This document shows, one piece after another, positions 321 to 33,614 of a stretch of 34,070 nucleotides of DNA. The position numbers were made by a program, and so were the translations under genes. Positions within the stretch are counted from its first letter, which is position 1, and each line of letters begins with the position of its first letter. Origin of the DNA: a virus. Its lineage: Duplodnaviria > Heunggongvirae > Uroviricota > Caudoviricetes. The stretch spans positions 385,354-419,423 of the IMG/VR virus record IMGVR_UViG_3300021400_000141. The stretch is one strand, 5' to 3'. The notes beneath the pieces are model-generated. The model saw only the letters and a list, made by a program, of their open reading frames with translations. It was not told the origin of the DNA and did no database searches.

Positions 321-416
321 TGTGGAGAGGTGGGCGGCTGGGGGACGCTGGGGCCCCAGGACAGGGGTGATAACCTAAGTTGGAAATCATTGGATGTAAA
401 ACTATATTTACATATA

Positions 417-450
417 TGAAAAGGGGGGAACGCCTGACGGCGCCCCCCTT
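417..450 (-). terminator. Intrinsic terminator after 475..1350
   Basis: AAGGGGGG..GCC-TGAC-GGC..CCCCCCTT stem, followed on the minus strand by TTTTCAT. Confidence 0.7.
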
Positions 451-474
451 TAAGGCATGATGAAAGAAAGGGTG

Positions 475-1350
475 TTATGCCACGAGTTCCCTATAAAGGG
501 ATTCTGTGATGTATCTAGGTGCTTTCAGTTTGTCCACCATATCGAAAGTTCTCTTGTTTGGGCGAAGGATACCGAATTCACCCGACTTGTAGAAATAGAG
601 CCAAGCGTCGAGGTTCATAAAGAACATAGCCACATAGGTTCTATTCTTGATGATTTCGTTCTCGGTGGCAATGGGGTCATTATCATCTACGAAGATACCA
701 TCGGGGGTAAAGAAGATTTTGTGACCATAGATAGAACGGGTTTCTCCCATGGTTATGAACTTGTTGGAAGCCCCTATGATAGTTTCCTTTGCAGCGGAGA
801 CTACCTTATTCCAGATAGAGTTCATATTGGTGGCAGAAACGATGTTCTTGCCGAACTTGTAGGAAGCCTGGTCTAATATCCATTTGGCGATAAGGATGGC
901 CTTTTTGGTAATGCATTCCCTAGACAGGATATGGGCGGTGAGGTTCAGGATAGAGAGCATATTGGCAATGCCTTCTACGAGGTAGCCCGACTTGGCACCT
1001 GTGAACTTATCGGAGATGTAGGCATCGTTCAGGTTCACATAGGGCGGGACGAACAGGTTGCCCTTATGGGATTCGATAGAGGCCCGTTCGATTTCCTTGA
1101 ATATGTCGATGTCATCGTGGTAAGAGGTGGCCACGAAATTAGCGACCCTGTATGCATCAAGGATATTGGGGTTATCCTGGTTTAGGATTTGATACACAAT
1201 GTTGCATACGGCCTGCAAGTTCTGCGTGGCGGTGCGGAGAGCATTGAGCGTGAGTTGCTCTTTGATGTAGGCCATTGCATCGGCACGGTCTTCAAGGAGC
1301 ATAGTTTTCACTGCGGTTTCGGGTTTGTTGATAGGGTTTGCTTTCATCAT
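475..1350 (-). CDS. Hypothetical protein, 291 aa
   Basis: Long ORF, GAGGAGG RBS, terminator downstream; upstream -10/TTTAATTA box present but -35 degenerate. Confidence 0.88.
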   Translation of the reverse strand: MMKANPINKPETAVKTMLLEDRADAMAYIKEQLTLNALRTATQNLQAVCNIVYQILNQDNPNILDAYRVANFVATSYHDDIDIFKEIERASIESHKGNLFVPPYVNLNDAYISDKFTGAKSGYLVEGIANMLSILNLTAHILSRECITKKAILIAKWILDQASYKFGKNIVSATNMNSIWNKVVSAAKETIIGASNKFITMGETRSIYGHKIFFTPDGIFVDDNDPIATENEIIKNRTYVAMFFMNLDAWLYFYKSGEFGILRPNKRTFDMVDKLKAPRYITESLYRELVA

Positions 1351-1451
1351 GGTGTTAGCCTCCTCTAGTATTAAATATACATAATTAAATACGGAAGCGG
1401 AGAAAAATCATAAAATTTTTTCACTTTTTTTGAAAAATTAAAAAATAAAAA

Positions 1452-1790
1452 TTATTTCAGTTTGCGGGCGACCCTTTCGAGGTAGTCGATAAAATAATGG
1501 TTTATCGCCTCGGAAGTTTTCAGAGGGATTGTAGCAGAGGTTGCCAACCTGATTGAGTTGTGGTTGGTCTTGTTGATGTAGGCTACGGTTCTCAACGAGG
1601 TGTCGATACAGAGGGGTTCGCCATCTGGTTCCAACGGGGCTATGACAATGCGTCTGCCCCTGCCTTCTTTTCGGACGATGGTTTCGGCCCTGTTGGCGAC
1701 CTGTTCGAAGTAGGTGGTTGAGCCATCGGTTTCCATCCTCTTTGCGGCATCGTTGAGTTGGGCGACGATGAAGTTGGGCGTTTCAATCAT
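1452..1790 (-). CDS. Hypothetical protein, 112 aa
   Basis: AGGAGG RBS, promoter at 1850-1878. Confidence 0.85.
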   Translation of the reverse strand: MIETPNFIVAQLNDAAKRMETDGSTTYFEQVANRAETIVRKEGRGRRIVIAPLEPDGEPLCIDTSLRTVAYINKTNHNSIRLATSATIPLKTSEAINHYFIDYLERVARKLK

Positions 1791-2033
1791 GTTGGTATCC
1801 TCCTTGTTTCAATCTGGGTTTCGAGCGGGGTTGCCAACCCCCATGATATAATATAGTTAATTAAATGGTAAATGTCAAGTTGAAAGTTGAGTAAAGTTTT
1901 GGTTACAGGAGATGGGGGAGAATCATATAGGGGGGGATACTCCGTGGGAGGCGAAGCTGGGACGGGGTGATAACGTAAGTTGGAGATTTTTTTGGGAAAA
2001 ACGAGAAAGGCCTGATGTTCAGACCTAGGGGGA

Positions 2034-2597
2034 TTAGTGGTTTGATTGGAAGTGGATGTGTTCGTTGGGTGTATACTGGCTTTCCCAAATCACCTTATAA
2101 TCCTTCGGGAGGGTTTGTTCGAGGATTCGGACCACTCTCCTTCGTTCATTGAGGGGGAGGTCATTCATTCTGATATCGACGGCTTGTCCATAGCGATGTT
2201 TGGACCATTTGTCATGTCTATCGAACGAGTCATGGGCGGAGGTGATGGTAGGGGAGAAGTCTTCACCGAGCTGGCTTTTGAACACTTTGATTACATATAC
2301 CAGGCCGCTTTCGAGCTGCGGGGTAAGCTCCATTACGACACCTGATTTCTGGAAAGTGTTTTCCATGATGTAATCATGGTTTTCACCTGATTGGACAGGG
2401 ACATCGTAGTTAAATTCTGCTTTTGACGGGTATGTATTGTATTCCCCATCATCAGCAGGATAAGTTGCATCTGTCCTGGCTTTCGGGTGTTCATCGGGAG
2501 TATATGGGTCGAAGATGAGCTTGACACCCACGATGAGCATGACGAGAATCATGCAGAGGGCAAGGCCGCATTTGAACAGATTAACTAGGCATCCCAT
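2034..2597 (-). CDS. Membrane-anchored M15-type (Hedgehog/DD-peptidase fold) zinc peptidase
   Basis: N-terminal hydrophobic helix; C-terminal ITS..S-K-H-x6-D (SKHRYGQAVD) and HIH motifs typical of M15 metallopeptidases; GGAGG RBS. Confidence 0.75.
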   Translation of the reverse strand: MGCLVNLFKCGLALCMILVMLIVGVKLIFDPYTPDEHPKARTDATYPADDGEYNTYPSKAEFNYDVPVQSGENHDYIMENTFQKSGVVMELTPQLESGLVYVIKVFKSQLGEDFSPTITSAHDSFDRHDKWSKHRYGQAVDIRMNDLPLNERRRVVRILEQTLPKDYKVIWESQYTPNEHIHFQSNH

Positions 2598-2621
2598 GGT
2601 GGACCTCCATTTGAATTAGGT

Positions 2622-2957
2622 TTAGATTTCTCTTGTTGCTGCCACTTTCCACGCGAGCAGGGTCGGGTAGAGCTTACGGGCTTCTTCCTTGGCCTTGGTG
2701 TCGTAGAGCTTGAAGTTGGCGATAACGAATTCAGCTTCATTCATGTCTTCGGCAGGGAGTTGGGAGAAGGGCTTGGCAGTAAGGGTCTTGAAGTTGCCAG
2801 GAACAGGAGATGCTTTGCAGCACTTGACAAACCAGATGTTGTCCTTGTTGTGGCAGGATTCGGGGGTTCCCTTACAGAATGTGTTGAACTGACTGATTGC
2901 CTGTGCTTTGGTGTTGGCAAGGACAATCCCGTTTACGACGATGATGCGCTTTTCCAT
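2622..2957 (-). CDS. Hypothetical protein, 111 aa
   Basis: AGGAGA RBS, promoter at 2987-3015. Confidence 0.85.
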   Translation of the reverse strand: MEKRIIVVNGIVLANTKAQAISQFNTFCKGTPESCHNKDNIWFVKCCKASPVPGNFKTLTAKPFSQLPAEDMNEAEFVIANFKLYDTKAKEEARKLYPTLLAWKVAATREI

Positions 2958-3038
2958 TGTGTTATCTCCTTGTTGTTTCTCCTATAAATATACCCAATTA
3001 AATGCTGGATGTCAATAGGAATTTGTGTAAAGTTTTGG

Positions 3039-3380
3039 TTACGGTTTGAGGTTGATGCTGAGGTTTGTGGTGAACTGTTTCTGTTCGAGTTTGAAGATGG
3101 TGGTATGGAACGTGGATGGAATCAGGTTGGCGCATTTGAGGTCCGCCGTGAGGAATTCCACCATGTTATTGATGGTGGCGGTATCGACGGTTTTGTTCTT
3201 GGGCGCTTTCCGTTTGAAGTTGATGATGAGGGTCAGGATGGCGTGGTTGACCTTGTGCTTGACCTTTCCGACGGAAAGGACGGTATCGCCGAACTTGGTC
3301 ATAAGGTCGTTTCTAACGAGGTTGCAGACCTTGTTGAAATCGATTGGTTCAATCCCTGTTGTTGCCTTGGTTGAAATCAT
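3039..3380 (-). CDS. Hypothetical basic protein, 113 aa
   Basis: AGGAGG RBS, follows 3396..3650. Confidence 0.82.
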   Translation of the reverse strand: MISTKATTGIEPIDFNKVCNLVRNDLMTKFGDTVLSVGKVKHKVNHAILTLIINFKRKAPKNKTVDTATINNMVEFLTADLKCANLIPSTFHTTIFKLEQKQFTTNLSINLKP

Positions 3381-3395
3381 GATGTTAACCTCCTT

Positions 3396-3650
3396 TTATG
3401 CGTTTAACTTGTAGACATGGGTAGCGGAGTAGGTATCGTCGCCAGTGGGTTCGCCGAACGGCATTTGCCGAACCTGGGTAAAGCCGTTGTGTTCCATCAC
3501 GTATTTGAGGTAGAGGTGGTCATGCTTCCAGTCGCCCCAGTGTACATCGACGGTGACTTCGCCATTCGGGCGGATACCATATTCGTAGTGCAGGTCATTG
3601 TCCTTGAAGACCTTTGCTACTTTCAGTTCGATTTCAATTGGGTATGCCAT
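3396..3650 (-). CDS. Hypothetical protein, 84 aa
   Basis: AAGGA RBS, consistent codon usage. Confidence 0.82.
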   Translation of the reverse strand: MAYPIEIELKVAKVFKDNDLHYEYGIRPNGEVTVDVHWGDWKHDHLYLKYVMEHNGFTQVRQMPFGEPTGDDTYSATHVYKLNA

Positions 3651-3741
3651 TGTTTAATCCTTGGTTGAAGTGGTGGAGAAAGGGAGGGGGCTAGCGGTGT
3701 GTGGGGTAAGTGTCAAGTTTCGCTACCCCCTCCCACAGTTA

Positions 3742-4191
3742 TTAGATGTTCCTGGTTCCTGCGAGAGATGTGATGTTGTTGATAGCATCCCGTGCTGACA
3801 TAGTTGCCTTGAACAGGTCGAAGTACATATCGATGAGTTGGGGCATATTATCATCGCACATCTCTATGACATGGCCGAGGACAATCTTTCGCTTGTCACA
3901 GACCCCAATGGAGAGTTTGCCAATGTAGTATTCGGTGATGAAGAGTTGCACGCCATTGTAGTCAGTCAAGGTGAATTCAGTTCGGTTACCGTAGTCTTCA
4001 AGCTCGTTGATTTCCATCTTGATAGAATAGATTCCCTTTCGAATGATATTCAACTGATGCTTGATTTCATCCGTGACAGTGATTCTGCGGAACAGAAGTT
4101 TCTTGGTGTCATGACGGAAATCATCAATCTGTGTGGAGAATTCGGACAGGAACTTTTCATTCCATTCTTTCAGCGTGAGTTTCTTTGCCAT
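3742..4191 (-). CDS. Hypothetical protein, 149 aa
   Basis: AGGAGA RBS. Confidence 0.85.
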   Translation of the reverse strand: MAKKLTLKEWNEKFLSEFSTQIDDFRHDTKKLLFRRITVTDEIKHQLNIIRKGIYSIKMEINELEDYGNRTEFTLTDYNGVQLFITEYYIGKLSIGVCDKRKIVLGHVIEMCDDNMPQLIDMYFDLFKATMSARDAINNITSLAGTRNI

Positions 4192-4282
4192 GGTTATGTC
4201 TCCTAAAAAATCGAAAAATTTTTGTTTACAGAAAAAATATAGAAAATTAAAAATAAAAGTGGGTCAGAAAAAATGTAAAATT

Positions 4283-4657: not shown

Positions 4658-4897
4658 TTGGTTGCCTCCTGGGCTTGTTCTTCTGTTTTAAATATACCTA
4701 ATTAAAACCTGGGTGTCAAGATGTTGTGGCAACTTTTTGTGTAAAAAATAGTTTACAACCTTCCAGCGGTTCCTGCTGGCGAAGGGGGCTAGGGTGATAA
4801 CCCAAGTTGGAAATCTTTTTGGGAAAAAAGAAAACCCCCGATGGGCTAGAAACAACGGAGTCGCCATGGCAACAAACGCCCATCGGGGGAGGAGGAA

Positions 4898-5395
4898 TTA
4901 CTTGTAGAGTTCGGGGAACAGTTCGAGTTGTCCGTAGTTGTTCCTCTTGTAGAGCGGGGTTTTCTTCACGGGTTTCTTCTTGGTTTTCTTCGTGGTTTTG
5001 CCAGCGAGGGTTTTGAGCCTGTTGACAACTTCCTTACGGGTGACACCTTTGAGGGAAGCATTGATGGCATCACGGTCTTCAACGGAAGTTCTGCGGACGG
5101 TGACACGAACCTTGGTGGTTTCCGTCGGCTGATAGGTGACGGTGGAAATCTTGGGGTTCGGGCGGCGGCCACGGCTGAGGTAGTATTCGGCGAAGGTGGT
5201 TTTGCCGTAGATGGTGTCTACTTCGACATCACGTGTTTTGATGTTGTAGCCGTCTTCACGCAGGTTGAAGATGCAGGCCGACAGGCGGGTGATGTGGAGT
5301 TTGTTGAACGCATCAAGGGAAGTGATTTTGCCGTACTTCTTGATGAATTGGAGTACGCGGGACTTTTGGTTGTTGGATGCTTCTTTGGAAATCAT
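4898..5395 (-). CDS. HTH_39-like winged-helix DNA-binding protein with basic tail ending QLELFPELYK
   Basis: N-terminus QKSRVLQFIKKYGKITSLDAFNKLHITRLSACIFNLREDGYNIKT...AEYYL matches the HTH_39 pattern as I recall it. Confidence 0.8.
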   Translation of the reverse strand: MISKEASNNQKSRVLQFIKKYGKITSLDAFNKLHITRLSACIFNLREDGYNIKTRDVEVDTIYGKTTFAEYYLSRGRRPNPKISTVTYQPTETTKVRVTVRRTSVEDRDAINASLKGVTRKEVVNRLKTLAGKTTKKTKKKPVKKTPLYKRNNYGQLELFPELYK

Positions 5396-5398
5396 GGT

Positions 5399-5986: not shown

Positions 5987-6081
5987 GATTGACTCCTTTT
6001 GTTGTTTCTGTTGATAATATAGATAATTAAAATCTTTTTGTCAAGAGAAAAAATGAAAATTATTTTTTACAGTTTCTCCCA

Positions 6082-6558: not shown

Positions 6559-6563
6559 AATTT

Positions 6564-7052: not shown

Positions 7053-7232
7053 GATTGTCTCCTTTGTTGTTGTTTCTATGATATAAATATACCTAATTAA
7101 AATGGGATTGTCAATAGGGTTTCCAACATTTTTGTGTAAATTTTCATTTACAAACTTCTGGTGGAAACCGTGGTGACGGCGGGATGAAGGCGCCGGGGTG
7201 ATAACCCAAGTTGAAAATTCAGGTGATGTAAA

Positions 7233-7252
7233 CGGAAACCCCCTTTCGGGGG
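7233..7252 (-). terminator. Intrinsic terminator
   Basis: CCCCC-TTTC-GGGGG at 7239-7252 with T-rich tail on the minus strand. Confidence 0.75.
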
Positions 7253-7265
7253 ATAGGACTATGGG

Positions 7266-7478: not shown

Positions 7479-7489
7479 GGTTTGCCTCC

Positions 7490-7903: not shown

Positions 7904-8110
7904 AATGAACTCCTTTGTTGTTGTTTCTATGTTATAAATATACCTAATTAAAACAGGGTTGTCAATAGGGTTTCCAACATTTTTGTGTAAATTTTGATTT
8001 ACAAACTTCTGGCGGAGACCGAGTGGGACAGCTGCAGTCGAGGCTAGGGTGATAACCCAAGTTGGAAATCTTGTTGAAACAAAGTTAAACCCCCGTGAGG
8101 GGGGAGTTGA

Positions 8111-9004: not shown

Positions 9005-9223
9005 AATGTTGTCTCCTATGTTTCTATGTTATAAATATACCTAATTAAATCGCTGTTGTCAATACCTTTTCCAACTTTTTTGTGTAAATTTTGATTTACA
9101 AACTTCTGGTGGAGACCGTGGGGACAGCAGCAGTCGAGACTAGGGTGATAACCCAAGTTGGAAATCCAGAGGTGAACAAGAAAAAGCCCACCCATTCGGG
9201 TGAGGCTCGGAGACAAGGGAAAC

Positions 9224-10576: not shown

Positions 10577-10794
10577 AGGTAAACTCCTTTGTTTCTATAC
10601 TCTAAATATACCTAATTAAAACGGATTTGTCAATAGGGTTTCCAACTTTTTGTGTAAATTTTCATATACAAACTGGTCGGAGACCGCGTTGGGACTGGCG
10701 GCCCCCAGTCAAGGGGTGATAACCCAAGTTGGAAATCTGGTGGAAACAAGGGAAAACCCCACCCTTTCGGGTGAGGTTCGGAGACAAGGGAAAC

Positions 10795-12562: not shown

Positions 12563-12765
12563 GGTGTTGTCTCCTGTTTTATATCCTAAATATACATAAT
12601 TAAATTTGGGTTGTCAATACCTTTTCCAACTTTTTTGTGTAAATTTTCATTTACAATCTATGGGCGGAAACCGTCGGGGACGACTGCAGTCTGAACCAGG
12701 GTGATAACCCAAGTTGAAAATCAAAAAATAAAAAATAAAAAATGCCCCCAATGAGGGGGCGACCA

Positions 12766-13476
12766 CTAATGGGAACTGCAATAGATTACCTTGACACCTG
12801 GGCGGTAGCACTTTTTGCATTTTTCACAGGTGATGTTATGGTTTAGTTTGGTTCCAACATACGCCCTGCAATGGTCGGTTGCGTCGATGTAGGTTTCGCC
12901 GTCATCATAGACGAAAGCGTGAACATTCGGGTAATGGGCAACGGTAAAATACTCATTTACCCCGTGTTCATGCCATATTGAAAAATTGATATGGAAATTC
13001 TTTGGGAGCGGGTTATTCTCGATGAATTCAACCGCCAGATTGAAACGCTTTGTGTACAGGTAGAAAGTGAAACTGGGGTGCAACAACGCGAGGGAAACCC
13101 ACATTTCAAGTTCCTGCAAATTTTCAATGTCGCCGCTCTGATTGATACGGACTACATTGAATCGCTTTGTTACGGACAGTTGACGGTGCAGGTCTTGGAA
13201 CACCTTGGACGGACAGGTGCGAAGCCCTATCGTGTTGACAGCATGACCGTACATGGCGGTCTTTGGATAACGGCGGTACGACTTGTTTACATAGCAGTCT
13301 TTGGTGCAGTAGTCGCAGTCCTTACAAGTGCCACGAACACGCTTTTCAAGACGGGGGATGTAAAGCAGGTCAGAACCTTTGAGTGTAGACCAACTTGCAA
13401 CACCTTCGCCCAACTTGATGTTATGACCGATGTTAAAGTGATAAGTGTATTTGTGAGGGTTGAATTTTTTAGCCAT
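12766..13476 (-). CDS. Phage Gp88-like Cys-rich protein, 236 aa
   Basis: TCKDCDYCTKDCY, VRINQSGDI, FYLYTK and C-terminal CEKCKKC motifs typical of the GP88 family. Confidence 0.75.
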   Translation of the reverse strand: MAKKFNPHKYTYHFNIGHNIKLGEGVASWSTLKGSDLLYIPRLEKRVRGTCKDCDYCTKDCYVNKSYRRYPKTAMYGHAVNTIGLRTCPSKVFQDLHRQLSVTKRFNVVRINQSGDIENLQELEMWVSLALLHPSFTFYLYTKRFNLAVEFIENNPLPKNFHINFSIWHEHGVNEYFTVAHYPNVHAFVYDDGETYIDATDHCRAYVGTKLNHNITCEKCKKCYRPGVKVIYCSSH

Positions 13477-13675
13477 AAATAACTCCGTTGTTATAACAAT
13501 AATATAGATAATTAAATTGGTTTAGTCAATGGGTTTTACCTATTTTTTGTGTAAAGTTTTCTATACACTGTTATCACCAGAGCCTCCGCCTGCGGCGAAG
13601 CTGGAAAAGGGTGATAACCCAAGTTGAAAATCTGGTGAAAACAAAGTTAAAACCCCTCTTAATCGAGGGGTGGTG

Positions 13676-14863: not shown

Positions 14864-15106
14864 AATGTCTCTCCGTTGTTAAGGTTTCTATATCTATAAT
14901 ATACTTAATTAAAATGGGTTTGTCAATAAGTTTTAATAAATTTTTTTGTAAAGAATTAGATACAAACTGGGGTTAAACTGACGTTAGAACCCCTGATGAC
15001 GACGCACGCGGGCCCCGTTAAAAGGGTGATAACCCAAGTTGAAAATCAAAAAATAAAAAATAAAAAATCCCCCTCTTTCGAGGGGGTCAGGAGTTGGGCG
15101 AATGAG

Positions 15107-15961: not shown

Positions 15962-16140
15962 AATAAATCTCCGTTGTTAAGGTTTGTTGTTTCTATGTAT
16001 ATAATATAGATAATTAAAATAGGTTTGTCAATAGGTTTTACCCATTTTTTATGTAAAGTTTTCATTACAATGTTATCGGCAGAGCCTCCGCCTGCGGCGA
16101 AGCTGGAAAAGGGTGATAACCCAAGTTGAAAATCTTGTTT

Positions 16141-16563: not shown

Positions 16564-16794
16564 TGGTTAAACTCCTTTCGTTGTTTCTATGTATATAATA
16601 TACCTAATTAAAATGGTTTTGTCAATAGGTTTTAACAGATTTTGTGTAAAGAATTAGATACAAACAAGGGTTTAAACCCCTGGGTGTGGCAGCGGCAGAA
16701 GGTCAGGGGGGTGATAACCCAAGTTGAAAATCTTGTTTAAACCAAAGTTAAAACCCCCTCTTGCGAGGGGGCTACGGAGTTTATGGACACAAAA

Positions 16795-17448: not shown

Positions 17449-17704
17449 AATGAACTCCTTTTGTTTCTATGTATAATATACCTAATTAAATTGGTTTTGT
17501 CAATAGGTTTCCAACATTTTTTGTGTAAAGTTTCTATTACAATCGAGGAAGGAGACCGTCGGGACAGCTGCAGTCTGAACACGGGTGATAACCCAAGTTG
17601 AAGATTCGGTTGAGACAAAATAAAAGCCGTGTGGAAAAGTGTTGTGGCTAGGCTGTGTTATGGCCTAATTTTCCACACGGCAGGGGGCAGGGAGACCCCC
17701 ATTT

Positions 17705-18492: not shown

Positions 18493-18723
18493 ATATTCCT
18501 CCGTTGTTAAGTTTTGTTGTTTCTATGTATATAATATACCTAATTAAATTCTGTTTGTCAATAGATTTAATAAAAATTTTTTGTAAACTTTTTGATACAG
18601 ACTGGGCGGAAACTGTGAAGGAGTCGAGCCAAGCTGGAACGGGGTGATAACCCAAGTTGGAAATCTCGATGGCAACAAGGGAAAGCCCCACCCTTTCGGA
18701 TGAGGCTTGGAGACAAGGGAAAC

Positions 18724-19203: not shown

Positions 19204-19441
19204 AGTAAACTCCTTTGTTTTGGTTTGTTGTTTCTATGTATATAATATACCTAATTAAATTGGTTTTGTCAATGGGTTATAAACACTTTTTGTGTAAAGT
19301 TTCGTTTACACCGTACACACAGAACCAACCGGCAGTTGCACCGGGTTTCCAGCTGCGGAGGGTGATAACCCAAGTTGAAAATCCTGTTGACACAGAAAGA
19401 AAACCCCCCAATTGGGGGGCCATCGGCAGTATGACCCAGGA

Positions 19442-20374
19442 TTAGGCCACCTTTACCGACTTCAACTGTCCTACGATGTCAAGGATGTTGTTCATGGGCT
19501 TGAAGCAAGTGTTCATGAACTGCGAGTCATCGTAGCGACCCTTACGGATGCTAGTGTGGGTGATGTAGTCGGTGTAAGCGTTGACCAATCCCCAAGCGTT
19601 GCCCTTGTGGTTTTGGTTGTCGTTTGCATCGAGCATCTTGGCGAAAGCGCTCTTTTGACTTGCAAGCACCAACTTTGCACGTTCATCCGCATTAGCGGGA
19701 GTCGGGAACAGCATGTTAAGAGCGAGTTCCGTTTCGCTCTTGCTGAGTTTGATTCCTGCGAACTGCTTTGCAATCTCGTTGAGTTTGCCCATGTACTGTG
19801 CCACTCCCTGCAAAACATACTTTGCTTCTTCCATGCGTTCATTAACCCTTGCCGAATGGCGAATGTTGATGGTGTTCTCAACGTGCTTGAAAGCAAAGTT
19901 GAACTGGTTTTGGCACACGATGCGGAGCGGAGTAATCGCAGCGGACAACTGATACTTTCCGTTGAACGAATTACGGAAAATAACATAGGGCTTGAAAACA
20001 TCACCCAAGATGTCTACCTCGGGGAGTTCGGCAATAAGGTAAATCATGCCTGTGTGGGTCATGCCCCCCTTGACGAATTTCAAGCCGTCGCTGATGTAGT
20101 CAACGAATGCAAAGCCATCCCGGTTCTGCACGACCTCGTACTTTTCACCCACGGTTCCCAGGATGTGCTTTGTGGGCTTATCATCCTTGATGGTGGTGTA
20201 GGTGGTCGCCACCATTTCGGGGATGCGAGTTCCGTCTGCAAGGTAGAGGGTTTCCTTTTGCACCTCGTAGTTGAGTTTTGCCTTGGTGAGGGCATCATCT
20301 ACCGTTGTGCTGTCAAGGGTGGTGCCGATGCTTGCCCAAGAAGCGATGCGGGGAAGAGAAATGATGTCTGCCAT
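19442..20374 (-). CDS. DUF932 family (phage/plasmid-like, TIGR03299-type) protein, 310 aa
   Basis: W..IGT..D....ALTKAKLNYEV.K, LGTVGEKYEVVQNRDGFAF, TPLRIVCQN and NAWGLVNAYTDY motifs. Confidence 0.88.
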   Translation of the reverse strand: MADIISLPRIASWASIGTTLDSTTVDDALTKAKLNYEVQKETLYLADGTRIPEMVATTYTTIKDDKPTKHILGTVGEKYEVVQNRDGFAFVDYISDGLKFVKGGMTHTGMIYLIAELPEVDILGDVFKPYVIFRNSFNGKYQLSAAITPLRIVCQNQFNFAFKHVENTINIRHSARVNERMEEAKYVLQGVAQYMGKLNEIAKQFAGIKLSKSETELALNMLFPTPANADERAKLVLASQKSAFAKMLDANDNQNHKGNAWGLVNAYTDYITHTSIRKGRYDDSQFMNTCFKPMNNILDIVGQLKSVKVA

Positions 20375-20595
20375 AATGTATCTCCTTGTTTGGATGTTTT
20401 TTGTTGTTTGTGTTAATTACGTAATTAAATATAACTAATTGGATTTGGTTTGTCAAGAGGTAAACCGAATTTATTTTAACTTTTTTCCATCACCAGCGTC
20501 GTCCTGCGGCGAAGGCGGAAAGGGTGATAACCCAAGTTGGAAATCTCGTTGAAACAAAGTTAAAACCCCGCCCAAAAGGGCAGGGCTGTATATGA

Positions 20596-21526: not shown

Positions 21527-21725
21527 AGGTTTACCTCGTTTGTTTATATCTATAATATACTTAATTAAATCTAATTTGTCAATAGTTTTTATAAAAAAAT
21601 TTTCTCGACCGACGAGATGACCCCGGGTCGATTCCAGCGGCAAGGGGTGATAACCCAAGTTGAAATCAAAAATAAAAAATAAAAAATAACCCCCTCTTGC
21701 GAGGGGGGCAGGGAGTTGGCACAAA

Positions 21726-22223
21726 CTATTCGTGTTTTTCCACTTTGAGGATAACCCATTCTTCCTTGCTGTCTTTCGTGGCAGGGATAATTTCGATTGC
21801 TCTTGCTTTTGCTTTCGTCTCCGCTTCCTTTTCGCTTGTGGCAATGATTTCCATTTGCAGGGCAGCACCAGAGAGGTCTCGATGCGTCAATTCCACTTCA
21901 AACTTGACGCTTGCATTTTCAGTTTCATACTGATACTTTTCAAGCACACAGTTCTCTATGTGCTCACGCAATGCCCTCGTGATAGGGAACACGGTGGAAC
22001 GGAGGTCTTCTCCCTTGTAGAACGGGTCATTGGGGTAGCCAACAAACATACCATACTCACCGTCCATAATACGAAGACCCCTGATAGTAAGTTGGTCATT
22101 CAGAACCACCGTTGCAAGCCCAAGAATGTTGCCACATCTTGCACCATCACGGAAAGGGTAAACCTGAACAGATGTGACGGACAGACATTCAAATCCGTTT
22201 TCTGCTTTCTTTTTTGTAGCCAT
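21726..22223 (-). CDS. spoVG: SpoVG family nucleic-acid-binding protein with ~70-aa C-terminal extension
   Basis: VTSVQVYP...LGLATVVLNDQLTIRGLRIMDGEYGMFVGYP...FPITRALREHIENCVLEKY is the SpoVG signature. Confidence 0.9.
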   Translation of the reverse strand: MATKKKAENGFECLSVTSVQVYPFRDGARCGNILGLATVVLNDQLTIRGLRIMDGEYGMFVGYPNDPFYKGEDLRSTVFPITRALREHIENCVLEKYQYETENASVKFEVELTHRDLSGAALQMEIIATSEKEAETKAKARAIEIIPATKDSKEEWVILKVEKHE

Positions 22224-22738: not shown

Positions 22739-22966
22739 AGATTTACCTCATTGTTTGATTTCTATATGAATAATATAGATTATTAAATCGGTTTTGTCAA
22801 TAGGGTTTTAACCATTTTTGTGTAAAGAATTAGATACAAACATTGGGTTAAACCCAGTCGTCAGACCCCTGTTTGGGACGACTGTTTCCAGGCCAGGGGT
22901 GATAACCCAAGTTGGAAATCTCGTTGAAACAAAGTTAAAGCCCCTGTCGGGGCTATGGTGAAATCA

Positions 22967-23558: not shown

Positions 23559-23864
23559 CTACCTCACCTCGTTGAACTTGTTAAGCACCACCGCTTCGAT
23601 GTAGGAACGCAAGTCGTCTCTCGACGGGGCAACCACGCTTCGTGCATCCTCACCCTTGTAGAAAGGGTCAAGCGGGTAAGCCACGAACAGACCATTCGGC
23701 CCGTCCATAATACGCAAGCCACGAACAACGATAGCATCGTTGAGCGTAATCGTCGCCAAGCCCTTTGTATACATCAGCGTTTTAGTTTCCTTGAACGGAA
23801 ACACCAGAACTTGTGTTACCTTGATACCGCAATTCGGTTCAATCTCTTGATACTTGTCTGCCAT
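23559..23864 (-). CDS. spoVG: SpoVG family protein, 101 aa
   Basis: IKVTQVLVFP...KGLATITLNDAIVVRGLRIMDGPNGLFVAYP...YIEAVVLNKF. Confidence 0.9.
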   Translation of the reverse strand: MADKYQEIEPNCGIKVTQVLVFPFKETKTLMYTKGLATITLNDAIVVRGLRIMDGPNGLFVAYPLDPFYKGEDARSVVAPSRDDLRSYIEAVVLNKFNEVR

Positions 23865-24072
23865 AGTAAACCTCGCTTGTTTGTTTCTATGTTATAAATA
23901 TAGTTAATTAAATTCAGTTTGTCAATAGGATTTTAAAAAATTTCTGTAAAGTTTTCGACACAATGTTATCGGCAGAGCCTCCGCCTGGAAGCGAAGGAAC
24001 AGGGGTGATAACCCAAGTTGAAAATCGAAAAATAAAAAATAAAAAATCCCCTCTTGCGAGGGGGAAAATTCG

Positions 24073-24861
24073 CTATACGCTTTCTCCGAAGACAATACCC
24101 ACTCGTTGGTCTTCGGTAAGGTATTCGTCGCTGTCAGCGTTCAGGCGTTCATCGTAGTCCACCAAGCCAGTTTCGTGGTTCGGGAAATACCCATCGTCTA
24201 CATCAGCGTTGAGCAAGCCAAGTCGGTCGAGCATATTGTAGGCTTCATCGACATCAATGTCATATTTGTCTTTTTCTTCCCAACCGTTGGCCTTGTCGTA
24301 AGTGAACACTCCGTAGTATTCCGTCACCTGCTCCTCTCCCCATTCGCAGCGGAACTCAATGTCGGGATAAAGTTCACAAATCTTTTTCATCAAGCCAACG
24401 GCCGGGCCCCAAGCACAATCGGTCTTAATAACGATTTCACCAGTGCTGTCAAAATTGGAGTGCAAGTCATCTTTTGTCTCAATGACTTCTCCATAATCGT
24501 TAAGGAACGCAGTGTGGCAAAAGCCCCACTTTGAACCCCATTCCTCACAGCAAAAATCATACCAATCGGCATAGCCGTAGTCTTTGAGGTTCTGCTCCCT
24601 CTGCTTCTCTTGGGCTTCCTTGTCATAGGTGGGGTTCGTCTTGAACTCGTTGTCGCCTTGCAGGATTTCCCCCATACTCATCAGTTTGATAATGCCCTCT
24701 GGCCTCGGGATAATGCTGTCGTTATCCAACTCCAAAAGGCTCTCGCTCCAATTCCTCTCGTTAAGCACAATAACGTGCTTGTCGATGAAAGTGTGGAGTT
24801 GCTTTTTCGCTTCGTCCGTCTTTGCGGTAAGCGTAATAAGGTTGTTGTTCCAATTAGGCAT
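24073..24861 (-). CDS. DUF1281/YubB (Api92-like ferredoxin-like domain) protein, acidic, 262 aa
   Basis: MPNWNNN start, DWYDFCCEEWGSKWG and TDCAWGP motifs match the MPNWCxN / WGTKW / TAWxPP family. Confidence 0.75.
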   Translation of the reverse strand: MPNWNNNLITLTAKTDEAKKQLHTFIDKHVIVLNERNWSESLLELDNDSIIPRPEGIIKLMSMGEILQGDNEFKTNPTYDKEAQEKQREQNLKDYGYADWYDFCCEEWGSKWGFCHTAFLNDYGEVIETKDDLHSNFDSTGEIVIKTDCAWGPAVGLMKKICELYPDIEFRCEWGEEQVTEYYGVFTYDKANGWEEKDKYDIDVDEAYNMLDRLGLLNADVDDGYFPNHETGLVDYDERLNADSDEYLTEDQRVGIVFGESV

Positions 24862-25092
24862 AGGTCATTCTCCGTTGTTGATGTTTCTATGTTATAAATA
24901 TAGATAATTAAATTCAGTTTGTCAATAGTTTTTTAAAAATTTTTATTAAAAAATCTACTGCCACTCCTGTCGTCAAATCCCTGTTGGGACTGCTGGGCCC
25001 CGTTAAGGGGGTGATAACCCAAGTTGAAAATCATGTGGCAACCTGTTAAAACCCCCTTTCGGGGGCAGTTATAACAGGCGGTTGGCAGTAGC

Positions 25093-25451: not shown

Positions 25452-25671
25452 AAGGTGTCTCCATTGTTAATGTTTCTATATCTATAATATACCTAATTAA
25501 ATCTAGTTTGTCAATAGGGGTTATCAACTTTTTGTGTAAACTTTGTTTAACAACCCGATGTCCAATCGAGGGCGGAAGCAGAGCTCCTCGACTCCAGGAC
25601 ATCGCAGGGTGATAACCCAAGTTGGATATCCAGCCCTGCCAAAAAGAAATGCCCCTTTCGGGGCGGTTATG

Positions 25672-26375: not shown

Positions 26376-26600
26376 TTTAGACCTCGTTGTTTGTTGTTTC
26401 TATGCCTATAATATACCTAATTAAATCTAGTTTGTCAATAGGTCATAGCAATTTTTGTGTAAAGTTTTGTAAACTGATGTCAATTCGAGAACCCAACCGT
26501 GGGGATTCGAGTCGGTGACATCTGGGGTGATAACCCAAGTTGAAACCCAAGTGCGGACAAATGGAAACCCCCTCTGGTGAGGGGGCGGTGATTAAAGATT

Positions 26601-26993: not shown

Positions 26994-27215
26994 AATATAC
27001 CTCGTTGTTTATGGTTGTTGCTTCTATTATAAATATAGTTAATTAAATCTAGTTTGTCAATACCTAATTAAAAATTTTTTCTCACGGTGAAATCGGGGTC
27101 AGCACTCGTGCTCCCGGGACTTCCTGCTCGCAATGGGTGATAACCCAAGTTGAACATCGGGTGCAACACGAGAATAACCCCCCACCCTTTCGGGCAGGGG
27201 GTTAACAACGAGGGG

Positions 27216-27737: not shown

Positions 27738-27936
27738 AGTTAAACCTCCGTTGTTTGTATATATAATATAGATAATTAAATTCAGTTTGTCAATAGGTTA
27801 TAACATTTTTTGTGTAAAGTTTTAGAAACAAGGTGAATGAAACAGAGAGCATCGACGCCGCCCGTGCCAGGGGTGATAACCCAAGTTGAACATCTGGGGT
27901 GAGCCAAAAGAAAACCCCTCATTCGAGGGGCGAGGT

Positions 27937-28200: not shown

Positions 28201-28202
28201 AG

Positions 28203-28463: not shown

Positions 28464-28684
28464 AGTTTTACCTCGTTGTTTGTTTCTATATTAAATATAC
28501 ATAATTAAATCTAGTTTGTCAATAGGTCATAACTATTTTTGTGTAAAGTTTTTAGAAACAGAGTGTGGAAGTCTGGGGATTCGAGCGATTCTGGCACGGG
28601 GTGATAACCCAAGTTGGAACTCCCGTGGAAACAGAAAGAAAGCCCCCTCTTGCGAGGGGACTTAGGAGTTGTATGACACAAAAA

Positions 28685-29083: not shown

Positions 29084-29439
29084 ATTTACTTCTCCGTTGT
29101 GTTGTTTTCGTTGTATTATAAATATACCTAATTAAATCTAGTTTGTCAAGCCCTATCCAGAAAAAAATATAATCACGGTGAACATCGAGTTGCTCCCGGG
29201 TGCTTCCAGGCGGGGGGTGATAACCCAAGTTGGAAATTTGTTCTAAACCGTTTGAAACCCCAGTAAAGAGAAGGAGTTCGAGGAGGTGGCACCAGGAAAC
29301 ATCTCGAAGAATACCACGAGCCACTCACAGTTCCCGGAGCTTCCCAGCGGCGGATAGGTGATAACCCAAGTTGAAGATTGTTTGAAACACGAGAAGAAAC
29401 CCCATCCATGCGGATGGGGCTAGCAACGAGGTAGGTATG

Positions 29440-29706
29440 TTAAGCTTCGTCTGCGAGGAACCAAGAGCCGTAAGCTTCGTCTGGGTCTTCTTCGTTAAGC
29501 TCGGACACAAGGGCATCAGCTTCATCACGGCTTATGTTAAGCTGGAACACGATTTGTGCGTGGGAACCATCTGGCCATTTCTCATTGCCAATGAGACCAC
29601 ACACTTTCCCTTCAAGGTGGTTCATAATGCAGTTGCACAAATAGTTGGCAAAAGAGTTGGCACTCTCTTTGATGTAGTTGTTTACTTGCAAAAAGATTTC
29701 GGTCAT
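29440..29706 (-). CDS. Acidic hypothetical protein, 88 aa
   Basis: GGAGGA RBS; promoter 29742-29770; terminator 29400-29419. Confidence 0.85.
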   Translation of the reverse strand: MTEIFLQVNNYIKESANSFANYLCNCIMNHLEGKVCGLIGNEKWPDGSHAQIVFQLNISRDEADALVSELNEEDPDEAYGSWFLADEA

Positions 29707-29961
29707 TGTTTTATCCTCCGTTGTATTGTTTAACTATTATAAATATACCTAATTAAATCTAGTTTGTCAAGCCCCCTTGATAAAAAATTCTGTCGCAGCC
29801 ATTCAGAAGAACATCGCGTTGGGACAGCTGCAGTCAGGACATGGGTGATAACCCAAGTTGAAATCAGGGTGGACATCAGAAGAAAACCCTCGTCGTTCGA
29901 CGAGGGCTGTAATGCGGAAAGTGTAGGGGTGTTTGAGTCTTGGTTAATACCGCATTACCTT

Positions 29962-30297
29962 TTAAACTTTGTGTTCCTTGGTGATGTAGAACATATCCCA
30001 CGAACAATTACGCATAGCCTTCATCTGCTTGCGAGTTGCGGTGTCCTTCCAGAGCACCTTGTGTTCATTCCCGAACATAATGTAGAGAACAGTCTGTGCG
30101 AGAATACGGGCTACCACAACATCTGTGAAGTCTCCGTTAAGAAGTTCAGGGTGCTTTTCAAGGCACTCCTTAATCGCACCCTTGACCTTGTTCATGTGGA
30201 TAGAATCCTTGACGAACTCCGTTGCGGTGTCCACGATTTCCTTGCCCTTGAACTTTGCAAGAGACTTGCCGCTGATTTTGATTGTTTTCGTTGCCAT
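29962..30297 (-). CDS. Hypothetical protein, 111 aa; start corrected to MATKTIK
   Basis: GAGG RBS; promoter 30331-30359 lies within longer ORF-track call. Confidence 0.84.
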   Translation of the reverse strand: MATKTIKISGKSLAKFKGKEIVDTATEFVKDSIHMNKVKGAIKECLEKHPELLNGDFTDVVVARILAQTVLYIMFGNEHKVLWKDTATRKQMKAMRNCSWDMFYITKEHKV

Positions 30298-30544
30298 TGT
30301 TATACCTCGTTGTTTGTTGTTTCTATATATAATATAGTTAATTAAATTCAGTTTGTCAAGTGTTTTCTTCAACATTTTTACATCTCGGCAGCACGGATTA
30401 TCCTCGACGCTGCTCCAGTGCATGGGTGATAACCCAAGTTGAAGAACTGGTGGAGCGTAAAAAAGAACCCCGCCGTTCGGCGGGGGGAGTAGTGTAGTAT
30501 CGCAGTTTAGGGAGTTGATAGTTTCGTTTAACCGCACCACTCTT

Positions 30545-31159
30545 TTACACGAATTTGTCAAAGCAATTCTTTACTTTTTCAATTCCGTTTTTTACACTTT
30601 CCAAATACTTGTTAAACAAGATTTCAGAGACCAAATAGGCGTGACCCAATTTATCCCAGTGCTTTTTATACTTTGCTTTGCAACCGAATGTTTCAACGTC
30701 AGCAGCCGAATAGAGAATAGTATCATCATTGCTATTCTTATCAAACGTGAACCAAATATATCCACAGGTGGAATAACGGCAACCGCTTACCTTATTGCGA
30801 ATAATAAGGCGGTTAATATCAGAAGAGGAGAACATTTGCGACTTCTTATTGTATTTAGCATTAGACCGCTTGAACAATTCCTTATGGATAATTGCGTAAG
30901 TGATATAACTCTTTGAGCAATCATCAGCGGACAGGTTATCTTGCTTACAATAGACAATTTCGTAGTCCTTACCCAAAGTCTCACGAACCATTTTGTCAAT
31001 AGCCGAAAGTTCGTTGTCGGTAAAGTCCGTTTCAATCAGTTCGTTTCCACGGATTTGAGAAAAGGACATAGGGATTTGTCTTGCTTTTGTCCGTTCGGCC
31101 TCATAATCCTTTTTGATTTGGGCTTCTCTTTTGTGTGTGTATTCTATGATATGTGCCAT
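30545..31159 (-). CDS. Hypothetical protein, 204 aa; start corrected to MAHIIEY
   Basis: GGAG RBS; promoter 31193-31221. Confidence 0.85.
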   Translation of the reverse strand: MAHIIEYTHKREAQIKKDYEAERTKARQIPMSFSQIRGNELIETDFTDNELSAIDKMVRETLGKDYEIVYCKQDNLSADDCSKSYITYAIIHKELFKRSNAKYNKKSQMFSSSDINRLIIRNKVSGCRYSTCGYIWFTFDKNSNDDTILYSAADVETFGCKAKYKKHWDKLGHAYLVSEILFNKYLESVKNGIEKVKNCFDKFV

Positions 31160-31371
31160 AGTAAAACTCCGTTGTTTTGTGTTCCTATATATAATATAGA
31201 TAATTAAATCTAGTTTGTCAAGTAGTTTGTTCAACTTTTTTCCTGACCGCCCTGACGACCGACGAAGGCTGCAGTCAGGGCATGGGTGATAACCCATGTT
31301 GAACATCGGGCTGAAACAAAGTTTAACCCCCTCTTGCGAGGGGGCTTTGTCGTCAGCGGCTAGCCGACGAA

Positions 31372-31707
31372 TTAGGCGGTCAATGTTTCAATGTGGTAAG
31401 CAATGAGTTTTGCCATCTTGCGTTCAGGAAGAACAGGTATGTCAATGTGAGCCTTGCGGATAGTCAGCGTGGCATAGGGCTTGCGGTGGTTATCCAAGCC
31501 GTAGGTCAAGGTGGCATCGCTATGCGACCACTTTGTTCCAGTCTTGCGAGAGTGTTCGGGCTTGAACACACTTTCAACAGAGCGAGGAATAACATCGCTC
31601 TTCTGCTTTGCTCTTGTGCCGTAGCCGAACTCAAAGACGAGGTAGCACAGAACATTCTTGATGTGGTTGTTGAACTTGTTGAACTTGTTGTTGGTGTTGT
31701 TGTCCAT
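31372..31707 (-). CDS. Hypothetical basic protein, 111 aa
   Basis: GGAGA RBS; promoter 31752-31780. Confidence 0.84.
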   Translation of the reverse strand: MDNNTNNKFNKFNNHIKNVLCYLVFEFGYGTRAKQKSDVIPRSVESVFKPEHSRKTGTKWSHSDATLTYGLDNHRKPYATLTIRKAHIDIPVLPERKMAKLIAYHIETLTA

Positions 31708-31952
31708 AGTTGTCTCCGTTGTTATGGATTGTTTGTTGTTTCTATGTCTTTAATATAGTTAATTAAATTCGGTTTGTCAATAGGTAGCACAAAAAAATTT
31801 GTAACATTTTATCAACATATTATACCCATTCGACAGCCAACTGCTTCCGCCCGCGTGCGAAGGCGGCATGGGTGATAACCCAAGTTGAACATCGGGGGGA
31901 GCGTAAAGAAATGCCCCCGTTTGATAGGGGGCGGTTGACAGGGAGCAAAAAG

Positions 31953-32318
31953 TTAATCCCACCAATCGGGCTTCGGGTCAGACGATTTTTCAAGGGCTTC
32001 GCTCAACTTCATTCCGACAGGGATACTAATGTCTCTTTCAACTGCGGGGCAACCGAACTGTTTGAGACCCTGCAACTCCTTCAAGTTAATGTCGCCATAC
32101 TCGCTGAAATCGGGGTTTGAGTTGTTCACCACATAGCCGTAAACAACGTCCTCGCTATCCTCGTAGCCTTCAAGGATATACCACGTCAATGCGTGGCTGA
32201 ACGGACAGAACAGACGGCAGGCGACCTTTGCTTCGCCTTTCAGTCCGTCTTGCGAACCGCTAGGGTGCTTCTTCAAGAACTTCTTGATTTCTGCTGTGAT
32301 GAGTTTTTGCTGTGCCAT
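31953..32318 (-). CDS. DUF2958 family protein, 121 aa
   Basis: KLITAEI...SQDG...VACRLFCP...TWYILE...EYGDINLKEL...VERD matches the DUF2958 pattern. Confidence 0.82.
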   Translation of the reverse strand: MAQQKLITAEIKKFLKKHPSGSQDGLKGEAKVACRLFCPFSHALTWYILEGYEDSEDVVYGYVVNNSNPDFSEYGDINLKELQGLKQFGCPAVERDISIPVGMKLSEALEKSSDPKPDWWD

Positions 32319-32542
32319 ATTATTACCTCGTTGTTTGTTGTTTCTATATATAATATAGTTAATTCATTTAAGTTTGTCAATAGGGGAGTTGAAAATAGTT
32401 GTAAAGTTTCGTAAACACAATACGAAGAACCAGAGAGCCTCCTGGTGCTCACGGGCAATAGGTGATAACCTAAGTTGAACCCTCTGGGGAAGCCAAAGAG
32501 AAGCCCCCTTGTAGGGGGCGGTGTAAGCAGGTAGGTGGCCTA

Positions 32543-32773
32543 TCAGTCCACCTCGGCATCGCCTAGTTCGCCAAGCCGATACTCCCCTTGTTCATCGCAG
32601 AACAAGCCGTAGCGAACATCATCAAGCATACCGCTTGCTTTCTCCACCAAGTCGGGCAACTCCGCTATGGGAAAATCCCAATGGTTTGCGTCAGTCGGGT
32701 CAATCAAGCAGGCATTCGCCACGATTTCATCAAAGCGTTCCTTGCTAATGCTTTCAATGATTATTCTAGCCAT
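32543..32773 (-). CDS. Small acidic protein, 76 aa
   Basis: GAGG RBS; promoter 32799-32827. Confidence 0.84.
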   Translation of the reverse strand: MARIIIESISKERFDEIVANACLIDPTDANHWDFPIAELPDLVEKASGMLDDVRYGLFCDEQGEYRLGELGDAEVD

Positions 32774-33005
32774 AGTTTACCTCGCTGTTATACTATATAA
32801 TATACCTAATTAAATCTAGTTTGTCAAGTGCTTTTACCAACTTTTTATGTAAAGTCTAGTTTACACACTAGGGTTTAAACCCTGTCGTCAGACCCCTGTT
32901 TGGGACGGCGGCCCACAGACCAGGGGTGATAACCCAAGTTGAACCGACGACCAAGCCCAAAAGAAAACCCCCTCGCAAGAGGGGGCAGGAGCAGGACAAC
33001 AATTC

Positions 33006-33185
33006 TTACGCCGCCTTTTTCTTAAAGCAGGAAGCACATATCCAACCGCCAGAGATTTCCTTGTAGTAGGTTTTCTTACCGCACCCTTGACACCTATGCT
33101 TCTTATCCCAAGCCTTTTGGTCAAAGTCCTTACTGCGTTCAAACGAAGGCTCCATTGCCACCTTAGGTATCTCTATCCTATCCAT
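33006..33185 (-). CDS. 59-aa zinc-finger protein (absent from ORF track): MDRIEIPKVAMEPSFERSKDFDQKAWDKKHRCQGCGKKTYYKEISGGWICASCFKKKAA
   Basis: Translated by hand; AGGGGG RBS; CQGC...CASC; terminator immediately downstream. Confidence 0.78.
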   Translation of the reverse strand: MDRIEIPKVAMEPSFERSKDFDQKAWDKKHRCQGCGKKTYYKEISGGWICASCFKKKAA

Positions 33186-33197
33186 TCAGCCAACCCC

Positions 33198-33380
33198 CTA
33201 TTCAAACGAACCGCACTCGGTCATCAAATTGGTAATCAAGTGTGCTTGATAAGGGAAGTTATACCCACCCACCGCAACACTCTTGTCGCCAATAAAGGCA
33301 CAGAGAACACCACATTCCTTTTTCAGTTCAAGACGGCTATCAACCTTTTGGCATTCAGCCACAAATTCATTCAGACCCAT
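33198..33380 (-). CDS. Hypothetical protein, 60 aa
   Basis: AGGTAGG RBS; promoter 33413-33441. Confidence 0.8.
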   Translation of the reverse strand: MGLNEFVAECQKVDSRLELKKECGVLCAFIGDKSVAVGGYNFPYQAHLITNLMTECGSFE

Positions 33381-33614
33381 ATTAACCTACCTTGTTTAAG
33401 GGTTCTATATTATATATAGATAATTAAATCCATTTTGTCAACCCATTCCACAAACTTTCGTGTAAACCTTTCGTTACAAACCCCGCCCTAACGAAAGGCC
33501 TCGACGCACGGTGCCAGCGTGCCAAGGGTGATAACCCATGTTGAACATCGGGAGGGGCGACAAAAAAGGGGGTTGCAACTGATGTTGCAACCCCCACAAC
33601 GGAAGTAAGTAAAC

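Follow-up and report, generated by a model that had tools for sequence, protein, structure and literature searches.

The 39-kb block and its repeated box

We examined a window of 34,070 nucleotides that forms the final 34 kb of a 419,423-bp virus record in IMG/VR (IMGVR_UViG_3300021400_000141), and in which a short box recurs between small genes. The record has direct terminal repeats and is rated 100% complete (CheckV-complete). A megablast search for close phage records gave no match. On the + strand of the window, the 9-mer GGTGATAAC was seen 34 times against 0.26 expected, and GTTG followed it at a constant offset in all 34 cases.

To count the copies, the whole 419-kb genome was scanned with a 20-mer (gene sense, TTCAACTTGGGTTATCACCC), allowing up to six mismatches. 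This gave 41 copies at 0-4 mismatches, of which 19 were exact and 16 differed at one position, and the class that came next, with 5-6 mismatches, occurred at chance frequency. The distribution was sharply bimodal with no intermediates, and the invariance of CAAC and GTTATCACC in the box is therefore not an artefact of anchoring on GGTGATAAC. All 41 copies were intergenic and lay on the - strand, which is the gene sense. They were also confined to a single 39-kb block that spans the record ends (genome 385.7-419.4 kb and 0.2-4.5 kb). The genes of this block are on the - strand; there are about 55 of them, small and with next to no Pfam matches, and they form 41 cassettes of mostly ORFan genes separated by the modules described here. 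A lone - strand GGTGATAAC (window 13570) was not a box copy, as it fell inside the variable spacer of unit c33.

The terminator-box-spacer-promoter module

Read in the gene sense, a unit consisted of an intrinsic terminator, 20-25 nt, the box, a GC-rich spacer, an AT-rich stretch, a sigma-70 promoter, a ribosome-binding site and the ATG. The terminator, a GC-rich hairpin with a T run on the gene strand, was present in every unit inspected. The box was locked to it: the distance from the end of the terminator stem to the box was 20-25 nt in 32 of 34 own units and in 72 of the 78 from relatives. On its other side, the gap up to the -35 hexamer was variable, ranging from 51 to 116 nt. This gap was filled by the spacer, which was unit-specific in sequence and had 64% G+C over positions +9 to +35, and by the AT-rich stretch, often TTTACACAAAAA. 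The promoters, on the - strand, were strong and near-consensus (TTGACA-17-TATATT, 11/12 matches, with a conserved spacer between the hexamers), and the leader before the ATG carried GGAG. Nearly all units had a promoter and a terminator of their own, while in units c01-c03, c40 and c41 the box was present without this type of promoter. The fixed terminator distance, the variable promoter gap and the boxes that precede units without this type of promoter indicate that the box is tied to the terminator, or the cassette boundary, and not to the promoter. No box copy overlapped a promoter.

We also considered whether the box could be a second promoter in each cassette, or an activator box, read by a phage-modified RNA polymerase (in a middle mode, or with a sigma-like protein that has region 2 only). 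Its length of about 20 bp, its rigidity and its orientation are like those of phage-specific promoters, and the genome does carry sigma-like genes with region 2 only, with matches at 275.2 kb and, weaker, at 124.0 kb. However, no conserved -10-like element was found at a fixed distance downstream, and it is the distance to the gene that varies and the distance to the preceding terminator that is fixed. No T7-type RNA polymerase was found in the genome, although the control for this search gave no match either. Outside the block, TATAAACTA(T) was enriched about 10-fold in the 80 nt 5' of 26 predicted genes and is likely a late-promoter motif; it is unlike the box. The late promoter motif of T4 is TATAAATA. 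Taken together, we regard a promoter role of the box as improbable to a high degree.

Some features of individual modules are recorded here. There was no consistent + strand promoter near the boxes. An inverted GTTGGAAA just 5' of the -35 was tried as a possible looping partner and rejected, since it occurred in only about a quarter of the units. Units c03, c01 and c40 (genome 2,250-2,310; 4,380-4,440; 387,250-387,320) lacked a sigma-70 promoter. Of these, c01 and c03 have CCCCCCTATATTAAGGGGTGTCCCAAGGCG.TGTTGCCAA in common just 5' of the ribosome-binding site, and a related but shorter stretch was seen in c40; the shared sequence may represent another class of promoter or belong to the leader. 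In the leaders of the block (e.g. window 7925-7936), GGAG was found in nearly all ribosome-binding sites, in an A/C-rich context (AGAAACAACAAACAACGGAGG). GGAG is the target motif of the T4 endoribonuclease RegB on early mRNAs.

Internal anatomy of the box

A logo was built from the 41 copies of this genome and 98 distinct copies from related IMG/VR contigs. In the gene sense the box reads TTYCAAC-wTrk-GTTATCACC, with two invariant blocks one helical turn apart; the full logo is (GAT)T-Y-CAAC-[T>a,c]-T-[G>a]-[G>c,t]-GTTATCACC-[C>t]. The first-pass annotation had reported that a left block anchored on GGTGATAAC and the GTTG were invariant in 34 copies, and this was borne out in the larger set, as CAAC and GTTATCACC showed no variation in any of the 41 own and 98 related copies. 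It had also placed nearly all substitutions in the centre. Inside the core this was correct: variation was confined to a 4-bp centre, with substitutions at gene-sense positions -5, -3 and -2 (window copies and the 98 related ones). Once the right arm was counted it no longer applied, since in the window copies the centre had 6 substitutions against 45 over the five variable positions after GTTG.

The arrangement of two arms around a 6-bp centre, suggested in the same annotation, can be drawn and its centre does vary, but the arms are not those of an inverted site. On the + strand the right arm was only TTGRA, with degeneracy beyond GTTGRA. Reverse-complemented, the left arm agreed with it at only 3-4 of 9 positions, which leaves no dyad symmetry. 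The two half-sites, TTYCAAC and TTATCACC, are instead head-to-tail relatives that belong to the family TT(A)YCAMC, and one begins 11-12 bp after the other. The box is thus an asymmetric bipartite site. As the annotation had said, the right arm did not resemble the XerD consensus (about 3 of 11 positions matched by eye to the E. coli consensus, and the dif of the host may differ). An imperfect GGGT/ACCC palindrome had been pointed out as well. It is present, and copy 32460 does carry the A..T pair, but compensation was not significant: of the 31 copies in which the outer position is A, 27 were uncompensated, with C kept opposite (Fisher P = 0.07).

Clusters of half-sites at the block edges

Both edges of the block consisted of about 260-400 bp of non-coding DNA dense in the two half-sites of the box, in both orientations. 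In the downstream cluster (genome 385,330-385,680), sites of the GGTTTCAAC and TATCAAC types in the gene sense were followed by inverted GTTGAAA and TGTTGATAAC, while the upstream cluster (genome 4,560-4,770) contained GTTGATAAC, GTTGGAAACC and GTTGAAACC. Across the two clusters, TT[TC]CAAC occurred 12 times against 0.40 expected from the rest of the genome (P = 3e-14), and TATCA[AC]C 7 times against 0.29 (P = 2e-8). In an alignment of three lineages, the sites of the downstream cluster were kept and the spacers between them had changed. The use of the half-sites in both orientations suggests that they are recognised as double-stranded DNA by a protein, and not as an RNA signal. This enrichment, along with the two invariant blocks one turn apart, indirectly favours another suggestion of the first-pass annotation, that of an operator or organising site for one protein, and it stands as a prediction.

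The surroundings of the clusters also had some distinctive features. A + strand promoter of the block family at genome 385,250-385,330 appears to point into the downstream cluster, and is kept in relatives; with this inward promoter, the two opposed arrays of the cluster look like an iteron-type origin or a zone of convergent transcription. The upstream cluster (here genome 4,560-4,970) lies directly downstream of a gene for a single-stranded DNA-binding protein (SSB; PF00436, L028 4967-5482, - strand) and its terminator, and between this terminator and the cluster there are C-rich and T-rich tracts with promoter-like elements. Two other kinds of site were tried and rejected. For a DnaA box, the cluster word TTATCAACA was one mismatch from TTATCCACA, and the box itself was not. 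For an IHF site, the TATCAC of the box had no conserved TTR at the right distance and did not fit the consensus WATCAANNNNTTR; a full match to this consensus arose only from tandem TGTTGATAACCTGTTGATA in the edge clusters.

These clusters raise the explanation that the box is linked to replication, the clusters being iteron-type origins and the 41 boxes being either extra initiator sites that titrate or handcuff the initiator, or polar barriers that shield the heavily transcribed block from forks. The phased repeats in two orientations, the promoter into the downstream cluster and the SSB gene beside the upstream one are in line with this, as is the + strand GTGATAAC, which resembles the Ter core at 6 of 8 positions. 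However, a search for a Tus homologue found none, among the neighbours scanned no gene could be recognised as an initiator, and the lock to the terminators would be left unexplained. We also count against it that T4-type replication is mostly recombination-dependent. A replication-linked box therefore seems to us a slim prospect.

Constraint and cassette exchange among relatives

This genome was compared with its relatives at 35 orthologous junctions. Identity averaged 94% in the box, 86% in the promoter, 80% in coding sequence, 79% in the terminator with its tail, 69% in the spacer and 62% in the AT-rich stretch. The differences within the box fell only at its free positions. The box is therefore under purifying selection and is the most strongly constrained part of the module, while the spacer, which evolves faster than the coding sequence, is nearly free except in its composition.

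Cassette order was kept among the relatives, with insertions, deletions and replacements that left the content widely different. Three exchanges switched parentage within the roughly 19-bp invariant core, so that the terminator side came from one parent and the spacer, promoter and gene from the other. In one deletion, however, the crossover lay within a 39-bp stretch common to two promoters, and in one unit the spacer alone had been replaced, the exchange being limited by the box and the promoter. As the crossovers are found wherever identity is long, they point to homologous rather than site-specific recombination. At 29215-29375, two boxes spaced by 141 bp enclose no gene, and the pair looks like the scar of a deleted cassette; the relative L013 does not have this arrangement, following a promoter-to-promoter crossover.

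These exchanges could mean that the box is purely a recombination module without any binder, a homology patch kept identical by homologous recombination or gene conversion between units. Crossovers inside the 19-bp core, and cassette content that differs widely while order is retained, would both be expected of it. A parallel exists in the promoter-early stem-loops (PeSLs), the terminator-promoter cassettes of T4-type phages (Arbiol et al. 2010, PMC2839356; Comeau et al. 2014, PMC4122927), from which mini-circles arise by such recombination in phages RB49 and phi1 (PMC2839356). However, conversion should homogenise the neighbouring sequence too, yet identity dropped abruptly at both edges of the box, and the same three internal positions were polymorphic in every lineage. 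The promoters, moreover, have identical runs of equal or greater length and are used for crossover as well, and neither the fixed terminator distance nor the edge clusters would be explained. We consider this explanation unlikely, although it deserves to be taken seriously.

The first-pass annotation had offered a second possibility, the core site of a tyrosine recombinase. More widely, the box would be the core of a site-specific recombinase of the Xer/dif, pdif or integron kind, cut in its variable centre to move the cassettes. As with dif/pdif and attC sites, arms and a spacer can be drawn, and the box marked the cassette boundary in several of the exchanges. Variation is also concentrated in the central 4-6 bp. 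A dif or pdif site has two arms of 11 bp in imperfect dyad symmetry about a centre of 6-8 bp, and pdif modules lie between sites of alternating orientation. Against this, the arms are direct relatives, with the 3-4 of 9 dyad matches given above, and the right arm degenerates past five bases. All 41 copies are co-oriented instead of alternating, the right arm is unlike the E. coli XerD arm, crossovers occurred in promoters too, and the spacer could be swapped on its own. In the complete genome we found no match to the tyrosine recombinase family PF00589, for which control genomes did give matches, and no gene of the serine recombinase (PF00239) or Y1 transposase (PF01797) families. Without a gene of these kinds, the dif-like and integron-like readings fail their defining tests. 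An integron array was rejected on other grounds as well: the half-sites are direct within 20 bp, the spacer is weakly structured with nothing like the folded attC, an imperfect inverted repeat of 55-140 nt (R''-L''...L'-R') that folds as a single strand, no IntI-type PF00589 protein, which would adjoin attI and Pc, is present, and the cassettes are self-sufficient, with promoters and terminators of their own, unlike integron cassettes, most of which are promoterless. A site-specific recombinase core is thus largely refuted, and we think it very improbable.

RNA structure of the box and spacer

The strict strand bias of the box, and its place just past the terminators, would also suit an RNA signal on read-through transcripts, such as a site of nuclease cleavage or, together with the GC-rich hairpin that follows, a nut-like site for antitermination or loading. 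The box and spacer did fold slightly better than shuffled sequence (mean z = -1.3 in the sense direction). However, the antisense strand folded alike (z = -1.6), which shows no strand preference, and the GGGT/ACCC pairing was without significant compensation. The half-sites at the edges occur in both orientations, and the spacer evolves faster than the genes. ARAGORN and Rfam searches detected no tRNA and no known RNA family. An RNA signal is, in our estimate, improbable. A Rho rut site in the spacer was likewise rejected, as C and G were balanced and not C-rich and G-poor.

One unit stood out in its fold. In unit c33, the spacer carries GGTGATAAC in the gene sense at 13570-13578, an exact complement of the box 3' half some 30 nt upstream, and box (13609-13628) and spacer together are predicted to form a long hairpin (-26.7 kcal/mol, z = -3.2). 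Units c23 and c31 have a decayed form of this complement, GCCGATAAC.

Candidate binders and other genes of the block

As can be seen from Table 1, three genes of the window were noted as possible sources of a protein that binds the box. The winged-helix protein has homologues limited to this phage lineage, and from the alignment and a low-confidence model it may have a second strand-helix-helix part and a lysine-rich tail. The two SpoVG-domain proteins are paralogous and lie in neighbouring cassettes. SpoVG proteins have been reported to bind nucleic acids site-specifically. A few other cassette genes had family matches (window 12766-13476, 19442-20374, 24073-24861 and 31953-32318, - strand; genome 3101-4363), to GP88, DUF932, an Api92-like ferredoxin-like domain, DUF2958 and a MoxR-like AAA ATPase; the others were ORFans.

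Table 1. Boxes, parts of one example module, the downstream edge cluster and candidate binder genes, in window coordinates
Feature	Position	Strand	Remark
Downstream edge cluster	1..327	.	non-coding, ~17 half-sites; starts ~25 nt before the window
Box c41	365..384	-	centre CTTAGG; followed by spacer and edge cluster, no promoter
Box c40	1965..1984	-	centre CTTACG
Box c39	4792..4811	-	
HTH_39 winged-helix gene	4898..5395	-	165 aa; the only one in the genome; candidate binder
Box c38	7196..7215	-	
Example sigma-70-type promoter	7937..7965	-	TTGACA-17-TATATT, 11/12 matches
Example variable spacer V	7966..8046	-	GC-rich ~40 nt, then AT-rich TTTACACAAAAA..GTTGGAAACC
Box c37	8047..8066	-	worked example
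Example intrinsic terminator hairpin of upstream unit	8088..8108	-	stem end 20-25 nt before box
Box c36	9143..9162	-	
Box c35	10714..10733	-	
Box c34	12699..12718	-	
Box c33	13609..13628	-	
Box c32	15024..15043	-	
Box c31	16111..16130	-	
Box c30	16709..16728	-	
Box c29	17583..17602	-	
Box c28	18642..18661	-	
Box c27	19360..19379	-	
Box c26	20522..20541	-	
Box c25	21645..21664	-	
SpoVG-domain gene	21726..22223	-	165 aa; alternative candidate binder
Box c24	22897..22916	-	
Second SpoVG-domain gene	23559..23864	-	101 aa; candidate binder
Box c23	24003..24022	-	
Box c22	25009..25028	-	
Box c21	25607..25626	-	
Box c20	26525..26544	-	
Box c19	27135..27154	-	
Box c18	27871..27890	-	
Box c17	28599..28618	-	
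Box c16	29215..29234	-	
Box c15	29356..29375	-	at head of gene-less 141-bp mini-unit
Box c14	29843..29862	-	
Box c13	30424..30443	-	
Box c12	31284..31303	-	centre CATGGG
Box c11	31870..31889	-	
Box c10	32460..32479	-	centre CTTAGG plus CACCT
Box c09	32924..32943	-	
Box c08	33526..33545	-	centre CATGGG

Comparison with known systems

The module is closest to the PeSLs. Both have a stem-loop terminator, an AT-rich stretch, a sigma-70 early promoter and a Shine-Dalgarno/ATG between small ORFan genes, and in both the cassettes are inserted, deleted and replaced among relatives, with crossovers within the intergenic module. PeSLs occur mainly within one hyperplastic region of large genomes of the myovirus type, and here the modules occupy one block of small, mostly ORFan genes. 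PeSL crossovers fall where identity is long, by homologous recombination (PMC2839356; PMC4122927). In PeSLs, however, the stem-loop lies directly 5' of the promoter and no further conserved box has been described, whereas here about 100 bp, made up of the 20-bp terminator-locked box and the GC-rich variable spacer, separate the two. Many of the crossovers also fall in the box and not in the promoter or the AT-rich part, and clusters of half-sites bracket the array. Beyond the PeSL frame, the module thus has an invariant box, which is locked to the terminator, and a GC-rich spacer, and the array has the clusters that bracket it.

The box itself recalls the stoperators of Cluster A mycobacteriophages (bound by gp71 in L5), which are also short asymmetric intergenic sites, present by the dozen and with an orientation tied to transcription. 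The stoperator binder is a monomer with two DNA-binding domains that contacts two major grooves in succession from one side of the helix, as seen in the structure of the TipsytheTRex repressor (PMC9283540), and such a reading matches the two invariant blocks of the box one turn apart. However, stoperators are 13 bp long and occur throughout the genomes of temperate phages, where the immunity repressor binds them and blocks elongation, with related operator sites at the early promoter. The box has 20 bp, is restricted to a single 39-kb block in a phage that appears to be lytic, always accompanies an intrinsic terminator and has a binder that is putative.

Two further systems offer partial parallels. 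In RNA polymerase I genes, Reb1 and TTF-I (at the Sal box) bind an oriented site at a fixed, short distance 3' of a T-rich release element and form a polar block to transcription and to replication forks. These are eukaryotic and unrelated in sequence and protein; the likeness is one of mechanism only. Iterons, known from plasmid and phage origins, are helically phased direct repeats of a short word in non-coding clusters, with outlying 'inc' arrays elsewhere on the replicon. The edge clusters, with their phased repeats in non-coding DNA, share this design; the 41 dispersed boxes do not, as they are tied to transcription units and not to an origin, and no initiator gene was recognised among the neighbours scanned.

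A predicted protein site and polar insulator

The reading that we favour, and to which we would give about an even chance, is that of a PeSL-like terminator-promoter module to which an asymmetric bipartite box has been added, the box being a predicted protein site and polar insulator that serves as a crossover point as a by-product. Most likely, a sequence-specific protein would occupy the box, as a two-domain monomer or a head-to-tail dimer; it would probably be phage-encoded, and the same putative protein may occupy the half-site clusters at both edges of the block. In intrinsic termination, the RNA is released a few nucleotides past the stem, and RNA polymerase covers about 20 bp of the DNA ahead of it. 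A polymerase paused at the U-tract would thus directly face a protein on the box. Given this position and the constant orientation with respect to transcription, we infer that the bound protein could be a polar barrier or insulator that stops read-through from one cassette into the next. The box would also be the longest perfectly shared stretch between units, and hence a preferred crossover point for ordinary homologous recombination, which would give it a by-product role in the deletion, insertion and swapping of cassettes.

Several points weigh against this interpretation. The roadblock role was deduced from geometry alone, the confinement of the box to one block is not explained, and the GC-rich spacer is given no role. 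The likeness between the box halves and the edge clusters concerns words of 7-8 bp, and a third, upstream half-site was in exact phase in about 19% of copies, a weak signal. Scans for more distant relatives, whether made with the box, with the HTH_39 protein or with the promoter family, each led only to the same few IMG/VR contigs, and no relative with a variant box was among them. As for the binder, the HTH_39 and SpoVG proteins are guesses; the model of the former has a confident winged helix at residues 10-70, which is a generic fold, and a poorly modelled C-terminal part. In addition, the phage looks lytic, as it has no integrase, which makes an immunity-type repressor unlikely.

A bolder form of the insulator reading can be put forward as a tentative proposal, one that we hold doubtful. 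In a lytic megaphage, one phage protein on the oriented boxes and the edge clusters would set the early-gene array apart as a domain of its own and form a polar barrier to transcription, and perhaps to replication, by which the 41 swappable cassettes are insulated from one another. Such a system would resemble stoperators but lie outside the temperate actinophages, and it would be coupled to intrinsic terminators.

If the box were a homology patch only, the block would be one more case of PeSL-type shuffling, in a far larger phage. A regulatory site that doubles as a homology patch for the exchange of ready-to-express cassettes would extend the PeSL idea. If the box is indeed a protein-bound polar insulator, it would provide a compact and portable terminator-plus-roadblock part for synthetic biology, and it would mean that in huge phages a dedicated boundary element, and not terminators and promoters alone, organises the early genes that evolve fast.

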